Assembly: GCF_044704955.1 (NCBI RefSeq)
Contig: NC_091994.1
Span: 33,480,001 to 33,544,000, forward strand
Origin: Pristiophorus japonicus
Taxonomy: Eukaryota
Length of the DNA stretch: 64,000 bases
Direction: 5' to 3'
How positions within the stretch are numbered: the stretch's first letter is position 1; each line of letters opens with the position of its first letter. Under the pieces are notes generated by a model that worked only from the letters and a program-made list of their open reading frames with translations, was not told the DNA's origin and did not search any database. This document shows, in pieces, positions 2,278-41,830 of this stretch. A program made the translations under genes and the position numbers.

Positions 2278-3027
2278 TTAGAGAATCAGACACATCCTTG
2301 AATGCTGTCCATGTGCTCGGGAATGATTCATCCCTCTGCCATTCAGCTTGGTCCTAGCAGGGCAATAGCATACCATTGCAGGACTCTCTGAATAGCGTCT
2401 CTTTTGGCTCTGATGGAGAATGATGCGGTAGGTCCCAGTAATGGGACTGTGGGAGTCCCAACTATGGTTATTACAGATGTGTTCCTCTGTAATTCCCAGG
2501 CCCCTCAATACTTTCTTCACCTCTCTTTCCTCTTCGTTTAGATGTATAGAGCTGGCTAGGTGGGCTGGATCCAAGTGAAATGGTTGGTATGGTTCTGGAC
2601 ATTCCATCCCCCTCAGCCATAGACTGTCCAGGATGTTTGCCAGGGTGTAGCGGTTTGTCGGGATGGGTTGAAGAATTCCATGGATTAGTTTCTGGCAGTG
2701 ATCCGATACATAGGCTGGAATTGTGTATGATCCTACTAAAATGCACTCTTTCAGCTTCCTAATATTGTGTGCACGGAAAGGAAAGGTTGCTGTCACCATG
2801 AAGTACAGCAGGATGCCCAGAGCCCAAATGTCCACGTGGATTCCAAAGTAGCTCTTCTCTCCAAATAACTCTGGGGCTGCATATTGAGGGGAGCCACAAC
2901 AAGTGTTTAAAGGTTCATTCACAGGATGCAGAACACTGAAGCCAAAGTCACCCACCTTCACACAGTTAGTAGTTGAGTAGAACACATTTTCTGCCTTGAG
3001 ATCCCGATGGACCACATTGTTCTCATG
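2278..3027 (-). CDS. NIM1K: NIM1-type Ser/Thr kinase, last coding exon (subdomains VIb-XI and C-terminal tail)
   Basis: Acceptor ttttcAG at 3029-3028; [35 protein letters not shown]; TAA at 2280-2278; ends CLIL; 750 nt, phase 0. Confidence 0.92.
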
Positions 3028-3454
3028 CTGAAAAGGAAAACGGAAAGTTAAGCAGGCAAAATATGAAGCAATCAGCAAAGAAGAGATGGAAGAAATGAGA
3101 AGTTAATAGCCTGTCAGTTGTAATAAATGGATCAGGACCACCAAACATCAGGGCTACCACCAGCACCAGCTCCATCACTCCATCCCAGTAATGACTTCTC
3201 CCCAGAGCATAGCCAGGATTTGCAATATTATCATCCCTTTCTTTTCATTTCTCCCACACTATGTTCTCAGTCCTCTACCAATGCTGCTCCTAAATCTCTA
3301 CCAGTATTGCTTCCTGGTCTCTGTCACTACTGGTCCTTTGCTTCTATCAATGCTGCTCCAAGACCTCCATCAACACTGTTCCCACTACCAGTTGGCTAAT
3401 CAGAGATGGCATATAATAACCTGAAATAATATGTAATAATGATGACTTATCTTT

Positions 3455-29296: not shown

Positions 29297-32200
29297 TGTA
29301 ATTACTTATCTGGATGAGGTCCTACAAAACGAATTTAAGGAGCTAGGAGTTAAATTAAAAAGTAGGACCTCAAAAGTGGTAATCTCGGGATTGCTACCAG
29401 TGCCATGTGCTAGTCAGAGTAGGAATCGCAGGATAGCGCAGATGAATACGTGGCTTGAGCAGTGGTGCAGCAGGGAGGGATTCAAATTCCTAGGGCATTG
29501 GAACCGGTTCTGGGGGAGGTGGGACCAGGACAAACCGGACGGTCTGCACCTGGGCAGGACCGGAACCAATGTCCTAGGGGGAGTGTTTGCGAGTGCTGTT
29601 GAGGAGGAGTTAAACTAAAATGGCAGGGGGATGGGAACCAATGCAGGGAGACAGAGGGAAACAAAAAGGAGACAAAAGCAAAAGACAGAAAGGAGATGAG
29701 GAAAAGTGGAGGGCAGAGAAACCCAAGGCAAAGAACAAAAAGGGCCACTGTACAGCAAAATTCTAAAAGGACGAAGGGTGTTAAAAAACAAGCCTGAAGG
29801 CTTTCTGTCTTAATTCAAGGAGTATCCGTAATAAGGTGGATGAATTAACTGTGCAAATAGATGTTAACAAATATGATGTGATCGGGATTACGGAGACTTG
29901 GCTCCAGGATGATCAGGGCTGGGAACTCAACATCCAGGGGTATTCAACATTCAGGAAGGAAAGAATAAAAGGAAAAGGAGGTGGGGTAGCATTGCTAGTT
30001 AAAGAGGAGATTAATGCAATAGTTAGAATGGACATTAGCTTGGATGATGTGGAATCTATATGGGTAGAGCTGCAGAACACCAAAGGGCAAAAAACGTTAG
30101 TGGGAGTTGTGTACAGACCTCCAAACAGTAGTAGTGATGTTGGGGAGGGCATCAAACAGGAAATTAGGGGTGCATACAATAAAGGTGCAGCAGTTATAAT
30201 GGGTGACTTTAATGTGCATATAGATTGGGCTAACCAAACTGGAAGCAATACGGTGGAGGAGGATTTCCTGGAGTGCATAAGGGATAGTTTTCTAGACCAA
30301 TATGTCGAGGAACCAACTAGGGGGGAGGCCATCTTAGACTGGGTGTTGTGTAATGAGAGAGGATTAATTAGCAATCTCGTTGTGCGAGGCCCCTTGGGGA
30401 AGAGTGACCATAATATGGTGGAATTCTGCATTAGGATGGAGAATGAAACAGTTAATTCAGAGACCATGGTCCAGAACTTAAAGAAGGGTAACTTTGAAGG
30501 TATGAGGCGTGAATTGGCTAGGATAGATTGGCGAATGATACTTAAGGGGTTGACTGTGGATGGACAATGGCAGACATTTAGAGACCGCATGGATAAAATA
30601 CAACAATTGTACATTCCTGTCTGGCGTAAAAATAAAAAAGGGAAGGTGGCTCAACCGTGGCTATCAAGGGAAATCAGGGATAGTATTAAAGCCAAGGAAG
30701 TGGCATACAAATTGGCCAGAAATAGCAGCGAACCCGAGGATTGGGAGAAATTTAGAACTCAGCAGAGGAGGACAAAAGGTTTGATTAGGGCAGGGAAAAT
30801 GGAGTACGAGAAGAAGCTTGCAGGGAATATTAAGACGGATTGCAAAAGTTTCTATAGATATGTAAAGAGAAAAAGGTTAGTAAAGACAAATGTAGGTCCC
30901 CTGCAGTCAGAATCAGGGGAAGTCATAACGGGGAACAAAGAAATGGCAGACCAATTGAACAAGTACTTTGGTTCGGTATTCACTAAGGAGGACACAAACA
31001 ACCTTCCGGATATAAAAGGGGTCAGAGGGTCTAGTAAGGAGGATGAACTGAGGGAAATCCTTATTAGTCGGGAAATTGTGTTGGGGAAATTGATGGGATT
31101 GAAGGCCGATAAATCCCCAGGGCCTGATGGACTGCATCCCAGAGTACTTAAGGAGGTGGCCTTGGAAATAGCGGATGCATTGACAGTCATTTTCCAACAT
31201 TCCATTGACTCTGGATCAGTTCCTATGGAGTGGAGGGTAGCCAATGTAACCCCACTTTTTTTAAAAGGAGGGAGAGAGAAAACAGGGAATTATAGACCAG
31301 TCAGCCTGACATCGGTAGTGGGTAAAATGATGGAATCAATTATTAAGGATGTCATAGCAGCGCATTTGGAAAGAGGTGACTTGATAGTTCCAAGTCAGCA
31401 TGGATTTGTGAAAGGGAAATCATGCTTGACAAATCTTCTGGAATTTTTTGAGGATGTTTCCAGTAGAGTGGACAAGGGAGAACCAGTTGATGTGATATAT
31501 TTGGACTTTCAGAAGGCTTTCGATAAGGTCCCACACAAGAGATTAATGTGCAAAGTTAAAGCACATGGGATTGGGGGTAGTGTGCTGACATGGATTGAGA
31601 ACTGGTTGTCAGACAGGAAGCAAAGAGTGGGAGTAAATGGGTACTTTTCCGAATGGCAGGCAGTGACTAGTGGGGTACCGCAAGGTTCTGTGCTGGGGCC
31701 CCAGCTGTTTACACTGTACATTAATGATTTAGACGAGGGGATTAAATGTATCTCCAAATTTGCGGATGACACTAAGTTGGGTGGCAGTGTGAGCTGCGAG
31801 GAGGATGCTATGAAGCTGCAGAGTGACTTGGATAGGTTCGGTGAGTGGGCAAATGCATGGCAGATGAAGTATAATGTGGATAAATGTGAGGTTATCCATT
31901 TTGGTGGTAAAAACAGAGAGTCAGACTATTATCTGAATGGTGACAGATTAGGAAAAGGAGAGGTGCAACGATACCTGGGTGTCATAGTACATCAGTCATT
32001 GAAGGTTGGCATGCAGGTACAGCAGGCGGTTAAGAAAGCAAATGGCATGTTGGCCTTCATAGCGAGGGGATTTGAGTACAGGAGCAGGGAGGTGTTGCTA
32101 CAGTTGTACAGGGCCTTGGTGAGGCCACACCTGAAGTATTTCTTTTTTTTTTGGAAATTCGTAGCCAATCGTTCCAATTCTTTGTCAAATCACAAACGCC

Positions 32201-33052
32201 AGAGGTCACCTTGCACACGCCAAGGATCACTCTGCGCCAATGCTTTTAGCCAAAAGGCCTAGAGCCACTGCACCGTTCCTGGAAGTACTGCAATACCAGG
32301 TTCGTGCCATGGAGGTGGATGGGTCAGGTCCCCCACACACCTCCGTGGAGGTGGATGGGTCAAGCCACCCCACCCACCTCCTGTTTCCAAAAAAGCAAGC
32401 ATATACCTTCCCGATCCAGGGAGAACCACCCGGAGGTCATGGTGGCTACTCCCCTGTCAGGTCAGTTACGCATGATCTTAGCCAAAAGGCCGAGAAGCGA
32501 TATTATGTACAGGTTTGGTCTCCTAACTTGAGGAAGGACATTCTTGCTGTTGAGGGAGTGCAGCGAAGGTTCACCAGACTGATTCCCGGGATGGTGGGAC
32601 TGACCTATCGAGAAAGACTGGATCAACTGAGCTTGTATTCACTGGAGTTCAGAAGAATGAGAGGGGACCTCATAGAAACGTTTAAAATTCTGACGGGTTT
32701 AGACAGGTTGGATGCAGGAAGAATGTTCCCAATGTTGGGGAAGTCCAGAACCAGGGGTCACAGTCTAAGGATAAGGGGTAAGCCATTTAGGACCGAGATG
32801 AGGAGAAACTTCTTCACCCAGAGAGTGCTGAACCTGTGGAATTCTCTACCACAGAAAGTAGTTGAGGCCAATTCACTAAATATATTCAAAAGGGAGTTAG
32901 ATGAAGTCCTTACTACTCGGGGGATCAAGGGGTATGGCGAGAAAGCAGGAAGGGGGTACTGAATTTGCATGTTCAGCCATGAACTCATTGAATGGCGGTG
33001 CAGGCTAGAAGGGCCGAATGGCCTACTCCTGCACCTATTTTCTATGTTTCTA
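29297..33052 (+). mobile_element. Young CR1 LINE: ORF1 SGNH-esterase C-terminus and near-intact ORF2 (EN+RT), interrupted at 32141-32504
   Basis: ORF 29376-29618 (VISGLLP...DGLHL); ORF2 from 29836 with GITETWL, MGDFN, SDHN, FADD; continues to a stop at 32962; tail ctatgtttctatgttt. Confidence 0.93.
32141..32501 (-). mobile_element. snRNA-derived SINE (U2/U1 chimera, SINEU-like) with poly(A) tail
   Basis: Minus strand starts ATCGCTTCTCGGCCTTTTGGCTAAGATCA (U2 5' end), then U1-like ACTGACCTGACAGGGGAG..ACCATGA..GGTGGTTCTCCC, U2 3' part CCTGGTATTGCAGTACTTCCAGGAACGGTGCA, a unique tail and A10; short (T)ATT duplication. Confidence 0.85.
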
Positions 33053-41082: not shown

Positions 41083-41499
41083 GTGAGTGTGTGACGGGCG
41101 GCGACCGCTCGCGGGAGCCCAGGCCTGGCAGCGTTGGAGGCAGCTGGTCCAACCTGCAGTTCAGTCGCCGCCTCCAGTGGGCAAACCCGCCAGTGTTTAG
41201 TACACCTGCAAATCATGTTACATGTACTGTGCAAATAAGGGTATTACATTGAGCAGTTAAGAACAGGTTTACATTACATTCCAGGATACATTTCAATACC
41301 GATCATGTATCATGTTATATGTAGCACTATGCAGGTGAAAGCAGTACATGGAACAGATGAGTATATTTACATTTCTTTACAAGTTATTAAACAGTACAGA
41401 GACTTTCATTATACATGGCACAACACAGGTGTTTTTCAGTACATGGTGCTCTGTATACAAGCAGATTAACAAGTACAGCCTGAGGGGGGTCTGATTCCA

Positions 41500-41830
41500 T
41501 CACCTGAATTTAACGTGGCAGAAGGGCCTTAAACTGTGGCTCTTCCCCACCGTGCCTTTGCGGTGACTGCACCAACCTTTAGTGTGCCCCTCAGCACGTA
41601 CTCCTGGACTTTGGGTTGCGCCAGTCTGTGATGCTTGGCTGTGGACATCTCTGTGCTCTGGAAGACCAGCAAGTTTTGGGAAGACTGAAGTTTGTCTTTC
41701 ACCGAGTTGATGGCTCTCCAGCAGCAGATGATGTCTGTCTTGTGCGTCCCTGGGAACAAATCTGTAGAGCATGGTGTTACGGAGCTGATTGGGAGTACTA
41801 CCTTTTAAAAGGTGTTCAATAAATACATGT
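41500..41830 (-). mobile_element. Tx1-like LINE 3' fragment in POLE4 intron 1
   Basis: LFPGTH..TDI.CCWR.INSVKD...LLVFQ...KVQEYVLR..LK.GA..AKA.WG..TV. Confidence 0.7.

Follow-up and report, generated by a model that had tools for sequence, protein, structure and literature searches.

Background

The crocodilian families SINEU-1 to SINEU-3, short interspersed elements (SINEs) with bodies derived from the small nuclear RNAs (snRNAs) U1 and U2, were not found outside crocodilians (Kojima 2015; PMC4494074). The promoters of U1 and U2 genes are external to the RNA and do not follow it through retrotransposition, and the transcription of SINEU was left open, with read-through from the flanks as a suggestion (PMC4494074); the question was repeated later (PMC5786205). 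The boundary between U2 nucleotides 38 and 39 is the target site of Keno and Utopia (PMC4640811, PMC6136364). Here we analysed a SINE with U2 and U1 sequence in the shark Pristiophorus japonicus, starting from one copy in a stretch of 64,000 nucleotides (contig NC_091994.1, positions 33,480,001 to 33,544,000), hereafter called the window, to which positions refer unless stated otherwise.

We regard it as probable that this copy belongs to a U2/U1-derived family of the SINEU type, likely moved by a Keno long interspersed element (LINE) of the Tx1 clade and likely transcribed from copies lying behind a U2 promoter. With somewhat less confidence we propose that a promoterless SINE homes to U2 38/39 and gains there the promoter of an snRNA gene for RNA polymerase II (Pol II), that U2 arrays are the source loci, and that SINEs with an snRNA head have in this family a second origin, independent of the earlier one and the first to be seen outside crocodilians.

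Structure of the SINE copy in the window

The copy (minus strand, 32143..32501) belongs to a young subfamily of what we call family A, is full length from U2 +1, and has 2 private differences from the 29 closest copies. Those 29 copies are almost identical to one another, and the subfamily is very young. Its segments were aligned with the snRNA genes of P. japonicus itself. The head (32467..32501) corresponds to U2 1-35 with stem-loop I and matches at 33 of 35 positions; the stretch 32501-32473, taken as the U2 5' end in a sequence-only reading made earlier, was identical to U2 1-29 (29/29). It is followed at 32415..32466 by U1 3-52, comprising the 5' arm and stem-loop I, in which the loop is altered and the stem retained. 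This segment, previously called U1-like, does align significantly (score 46; mean of shuffles 17.7, standard deviation 2.3, none of 2000 as high), and in an older copy 44 of 49 aligned positions match U1 3-52. A second U1 piece persists as a remnant at 32402..32417, which in older subfamilies is U1 28-47 (19/20 in an older copy). Next come the U-tract of the U2 Sm site (T6, 32389..32394), whose preceding A is lost in the window subfamily and 2-16 nucleotides 3' of which many copies are truncated, and the 3' half of U2 (32264..32388) with stem-loop III duplicated and then stem-loop IV. The period of the duplication is 36 nucleotides at one end and 37 at the other, and the predicted stems have 13 bp and 12 bp. 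The 3' half of U2 with its internal duplication, placed at about 32400-32269 in the earlier reading, is present, but 32417-32402 is of U1 and not U2 origin. Similarly, what had been read as a non-snRNA tail opens with a further stretch of U2 (32246..32263; U2 7-24, 17/18, 0/2000 shuffles; U2 7-38 in the oldest family), and the rest (32153..32240, 88 nucleotides) matches neither snRNA nor the partner LINE described below; it is predicted to form a hairpin, in the loop of which the subfamily variants lie. The ten A residues first described as the poly(A) end occupy 32143..32152.

The copy interrupts, in antisense, an open reading frame (ORF) of a host LINE (plus strand, 29785..32960), which has endonuclease and reverse transcriptase motifs, is open on both sides of the insertion, and is presumably CR1-like. 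Comparison with the empty site in other, uninterrupted copies of this host LINE gave a target-site duplication of 3 bp (32502..32504 and 32138..32140), or 4 bp when the element's first A is counted, in agreement with the 3-4 bp read previously. This length is atypically short for the family, in which the median is 14 bp.

In a search against Rfam, the window copy was recognised as U2 (59.9 bits, E 6.7e-11), with no other match at the gathering level in the whole window. U1 did not appear in the results for this copy at E<=1, and was matched in an older copy below the gathering score (E 0.0031), so that the proposed scan recovered U2 in the window and U1 in the older copy alone. No match to tRNA, 5S or 7SL RNA was found in the window, and a pattern scan with consensus sequences of the boxes found no A box or B box of RNA polymerase III (Pol III) in the element. 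Runs of T are present at element positions 15, 108 and 247. The element, of about 350 nucleotides (<500 bp), needs no ORF.

Size, age and insertion sites of the family

An 18-mer from the family A tail had 5,540 exact matches genome-wide (control 0), and a DNA search of the 5.9 Gb genome gave 1,381 candidates, among which all 40 scored were full length, at least 99% identical and spread over many contigs. The refuting outcome of a single copy, raised beforehand, therefore did not occur. The copies have one architecture, unrelated flanks and target-site duplications, and the idea of an snRNA-headed SINE family in a fish-like genome has held up, the host being a shark. Among 160 loci examined, 158 were A-tailed, and 93 of these had an exact duplication of at least 8 bp with a median of 14 bp, the method being blind to shorter lengths. 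In 87 loci with duplications outside the Gypsy site described below, the nick context was RRY|AW (purine at -2 in 68, pyrimidine at -1 in 75, A/T at +2 in 84); the count of A at +1 is inflated by the A tail. The family also shows 5' truncations, tandem re-insertions at the same nick, and at least five coexisting subfamilies distinguished by the tail loop.

The first 60 loci on contig C1 contain 65 family A copies; the start lies no more than 20 nucleotides from +1 in 34 of them, immediately 3' of the U-tract in 24, between these two points in 5 and further on in 2. Element positions 115-129, just 3' of the U-tract, are a strong hot spot of 5' truncation, which is nearly absent in the subfamily of the array type (see below). 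A block by the Sm ring as the cause of truncation was not supported, because short copies were fewest in the subfamily that has an A in front of the U-tract (1/23 against 61/157; Fisher p 0.0007). A second recurrent insertion site is the 3' end of an abundant repeat (L015, L061, L072, L076, L247 and L255; 2 of 60 position-ordered loci), which we take to be L2-like.

Words sampled from the element were also looked for in sequencing runs. The proportion present was 0.42-0.83 in 7 runs of one organism (2 studies, one possibly the source of the assembly), 0.25 in 1 run of a second organism and 0.06 in 16 runs of a third. The run of the second organism, X8, might point to a related family, but occurrence in another species is no more than a lead. 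None of the runs listed as containing the words was of RNA, which has no bearing on expression.

Insertion sites shared with a Tx1-type LINE

We searched for junctions of poly(A) followed by U2 39-63; there were 62, against 0 for the control, and almost all lie within clusters of U2 genes. The set examined (59 of the 62) comprised 31 LINEs, 21 copies of family A, 6 copies of family B, which is an older relative, and 1 unclassified insert. The SINE and the LINE both end before U2 nucleotide 39, and in a Gypsy pol gene, too, their ends fall on one shared base; the nick context in U2, AGT|AT, fits RRY|AW.

The Gypsy site is a single position within the RNase H region of pol, used in antisense, and was found in 9 of 58 loci picked by identity and in 2 of 60 picked by position. 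Genome-wide, this site was filled by an insert with poly(A) in 92 cases and empty in 6,895, and the number of fills expected by chance is about 0.003, or 0.2 given a 1-in-64 motif. The 87 filled sites that were fetched contained family A (76), family B (7), the LINE (2) or poly(A) only (2), and the remaining 5 are family A; LINE ends are present within the SINE stacks at this site too. The SINE bodies differ by 0-1 nucleotide while the flanks are 84-92% alike, indicating independent insertions. Hitch-hiking on the amplification of Gypsy was rejected on this comparison.

The LINE at the Gypsy site is 96.6% identical to that in the U2 arrays over 4,538 nucleotides. The LINE has a Tx1-type domain set: seven copies in an array on C19 have open ORF1 (569 amino acids) and ORF2 (1145 amino acids), with a ZCCHC3-type RNA-binding domain, a zinc knuckle, an APE-type endonuclease, reverse transcriptase and zf-RVT. 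The LINE is 39% identical over 1121 amino acids to a pufferfish reverse transcriptase (BAD04856.1). Sampled copies of the LINE lie mostly outside U2 genes, with duplications of 8-18 bp, so its specificity for U2 is not strict; an initial sample of zf-RVT matches (30 of 150) showed no U2 flank, the link with U2 coming from the junction search. Together, these results make this Tx1-type LINE the likely partner of the SINE. The window itself contains, at 41342-41794, a 77% identical fragment of the partner Tx1/Keno LINE family, from near its 3' end.

SINE copies behind U2 upstream regions and their dispersed relatives

In the U2 arrays we found 17 complete units consisting of a U2 upstream region, a full SINE from +1, poly(A) and U2 39-191. 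These units have no second copy of U2 1-38, and the SINE stands directly behind the unchanged upstream region, 150 bp of which are 99-100% identical to those of intact neighbours. Sixteen of the units lie behind one type of U2 upstream region (the C19 type) and 1 behind the other. The fetched stretches contained 53 intact U2 genes, 16 SINE units and 7 LINE units with the C19-type upstream region, counts that are biased towards insertions because the stretches were chosen around junction matches.

Several features of the U2 loci were recorded beside these counts. The genome has two U2 gene types (L043-L054 and L278-L283) with unrelated upstream regions and different sequences of stem-loop IV. 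In the array at C19:69669500-69728899 (L353-L358), most units are disrupted; it contains 4 SINE units and 7 intact LINEs, some of the latter in tandem. The U2 head of the LINE in this array carries substitutions of its own, suggesting that the LINE likely inherits its head too. In the U2 cluster on C9 (L325-L330, L372), a LINE stub and family B copies entered a U2 gene and were later amplified together with the large C9 repeat unit.

The SINEs in the arrays have a private one-base insertion, and most have two further substitutions. A motif diagnostic of the array type had 29 matches, 18 in arrays and 11 dispersed. The 11 dispersed copies have 0-1 mismatches to the matching array variant (9 fit the first variant and 2 the second), and the 2 carry both extra substitutions of the commoner array variant. 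None of the 11 is followed by U2, and a duplication was found by eye in 7. One of these array-type daughters, L398 (C3804:342071), has flanks that resemble the start of a histone H2B coding sequence. Most simply, the U2 promoter would drive transcription of the array units and these would give rise to the dispersed copies, which we consider likely. An unseen source elsewhere feeding both arrays and dispersed copies is conceivable, and would need the same two substitutions.

We suggest the following cycle, in which nicking, homologous 5' joining, Pol II capping and template switches follow the established biology of Tx1, R2 and snRNAs. The LINE endonuclease would nick U2 at 37/38, and the LINE reverse transcriptase would copy the SINE RNA from its A tail. 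Since the head of the SINE is U2 1-28, the 5' junction could form by homology, restoring a promoter-fused unit from which Pol II would make capped RNA starting at +1. Turnover of the array would multiply or remove such units, so that source genes would succeed one another, and most daughters would land elsewhere at a loose RRY|AW context and be dead ends.

Family B and the inferred history

A motif of family B had 600 exact matches (control 0), of which the first 30 were examined. Its oldest form, B0, consists of a whole U2 with a deletion of 9 nucleotides, followed by U2 7-38 and a short tail for which folding back onto U2 24-38 is predicted. In family B the second stretch of U2 stops at U2 38, the Keno and Utopia site. 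B0 is identical to one of the genome's U2 types at 179 of 182 positions and to the other at 171 of 182, and the deletion was common to all five B0 copies aligned. In family A, U1 pieces stand where U2 from about 36 to 95 would be expected. If, as we infer, the upstream member of a tandem stack is the newer one, family B is older, being downstream in 9/9 mixed pairs, and the array type is younger, being upstream in 15/16. Locus L084, a candidate insertion in a U2 gene, proved to be stacked on a family B copy. Changes shared by subfamilies lie in predicted loops while the stems persist, and families B and A differ by one two-sided change in the tail stem; this pattern is purely descriptive.

Family B is the likely ancestor of family A. 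In the history that we propose, a short tail would have been joined to U2 1-38, and a whole U2 placed in front would then have given family B; U1 pieces would have been swapped in through template switching, and duplication of stem-loop III would have led to family A.

Alternative explanations

Several observations weigh against transcription from U2 arrays and movement by the LINE. The unplaced contigs may repeat one array, and the 17 units represent three sequence types and at least 2 insertions, not 17 events. A consensus proximal sequence element was not recognised in the C19-type upstream region; the putative activity of this region is suggested by the 53 intact neighbours and by family B, which matches this U2 type. 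In the only other family A copy within a U2 gene (L323), the upstream region is lost. The window subfamily and the array type agree at 309 of 331 aligned positions, with 9 gaps (about 93%), and a promoter-fused copy of the window subfamily was not found in a search with a pattern of 5 upstream bases and one head type, in which both U2 upstream types were sought: all 7 matches were ordinary dispersed copies. Array turnover and assembly collapse may explain the missing source, and are offered as an explanation and not as evidence. The tail shares no sequence with the partner LINE, which leaves poly(A) or shape as the means of recognition. Finally, targeting is loose, with the Gypsy site at 2 of 60 position-ordered loci and U2 at 0 of 60.

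Alternatively, with the same family and LINE partner, the sources could be dispersed or tandem copies read through from chance promoters nearby. The copies in U2 arrays would then be passengers, and the +1 end would be renewed by template switching onto U2 RNA. Read-through was proposed for SINEU (PMC4494074), and here U2 6-55 is joined at element position 117 in L067, one subfamily has a new head reaching U2 38, and for most of the many coexisting subfamilies no promoter-fused source was found. We nevertheless consider this explanation rather unlikely, because both array variants, one being the other with two substitutions added, have exact dispersed daughters, and because, in the junctions inspected by eye, the duplications abut the first bases of the element and no 5' extension common to loci was noticed (uncounted). 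A promoter hidden inside the element, for Pol II or Pol III, would make any full-length copy a source as in ordinary SINEs, and would suit the high copy number, the variety of tail-loop subfamilies and the proportion of copies that are full length or nearly so (34/65). This seems improbable, given that A and B boxes were lacking, that the three T runs would stop Pol III, that tRNA, 5S and 7SL RNA had no match in the window, and that snRNA genes are stated to be without a known internal promoter (PMC4494074).

The persistence of the predicted stems of U1 I and of U2 I, III and IV while loops change, together with the two-sided change in the tail stem, could also be read as a sign that the host retains the array units as a functional variant snRNA, with the dispersed copies as its pseudogenes. 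However, these units lack U2's branch-point arm and stem-loop II, carry a templated poly(A) at the end and break up a U2 gene in exactly the manner of the LINE, and the subfamilies turn over fast, which makes this very doubtful. Least credible of all is a sum of independent chimeric U2/U1 retropseudogenes: although B0 resembles a processed pseudogene in its closeness to U2, derived junctions common to thousands of copies refute it, as do the shared B0 deletion, the common subfamily changes and the 99% identity of all 40 copies scored. We therefore retain, as probable, a SINE family carried by the Tx1-type LINE and expressed from promoter-fused copies in U2 arrays.

If this is true, the transcription of SINEU-type elements would receive a general explanation, and a complete series from U2 gene to composite SINE would be kept in one genome. 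The class of snRNA-headed SINEs is not a crocodilian oddity, and similar promoter-fused units are predicted in crocodilian U2 arrays. With SINE units fused to a promoter, intact LINEs from the same array and dispersed daughters that match exactly, the question of transcription becomes directly testable at named loci, and the intact LINE is offered as a carrier that takes an unrelated short RNA to one defined base in a multicopy gene.

Comparison with known systems

The host is not a crocodilian: for the final coding exon of a gene in the window for a NIM1-like protein kinase (2281-3030, minus strand), the 13 best matches were all from cartilaginous fishes, sharks first. The element lacks the 7SL, tRNA or 5S head with a Pol III promoter of classical SINE1, SINE2 and SINE3. 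In a comparison with the published text, it resembles SINEU in its U1/U2-derived body of <500 bp present in many copies of the same structure, poly(A), recurrent U1/U2 additions at the 5' end, internal oligo-T, tandem insertions, lack of a Pol III promoter, and a target preference in common with a Tx1 group, that of SINEU clustering with Keno. SINEU-2 consists of the 5' part of U1 and the 3' part of U2, and SINEU-3 is an internally deleted U2. The shark family differs in its host, in its probable origin from the host's own U2, and in its targets, which are U2 genes and the Gypsy pol site instead of Mariner-N4; for SINEU, the text consulted describes no copies that are fused to a promoter in U2 arrays and have daughters elsewhere. 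The separate origin supposed in the sequence-only reading is strongly suggested, though not more than that, by the near identity of the oldest family with the genome's own U2 type (179/182), and the family is probably not one of the crocodilian ones. Neither an snRNA-headed SINE outside crocodilians nor promoter capture was found in the literature searched, which included few subscription papers and lay apart from Repbase Reports and Dfam.

Among other cartilaginous fishes, CmiSINE and SacSINE1 are likewise short non-autonomous retroposons, but they have tRNA heads with A and B boxes, and the word snRNA is absent from the part of PMC5499810 consulted. Chimeric and tailless snRNA retropseudogenes share template switching onto snRNAs as the likely origin of their junctions (PMC4494074); those are one-off events, whereas the shark junctions are inherited by whole subfamilies.

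The partner LINE is similar to Keno in having an APE-type endonuclease and reverse transcriptase, an RNA-binding, zinc-knuckle ORF1 and a 3' flank starting at U2 nucleotide 39, but its specificity is relaxed, with many copies elsewhere that have duplications of 8-18 bp. A SINE riding Keno into U2 genes was not described in the literature searched. The R2 SIDEs and R2/R1 hybrid SIDEs of Drosophila are also short non-autonomous elements lying in the target array of a LINE and co-transcribed from the host promoter (PMC3414825). They are deleted LINEs freed by a ribozyme (PMC3414825), while the shark SINE has no LINE sequence, its ends are not derived from a LINE, its head is the 5' end of the target gene itself, and it has thousands of copies genome-wide. 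The R2 SIDE is the nearest functional parallel to this real, young and probably independent SINEU-type family with its likely partner and likely source loci.

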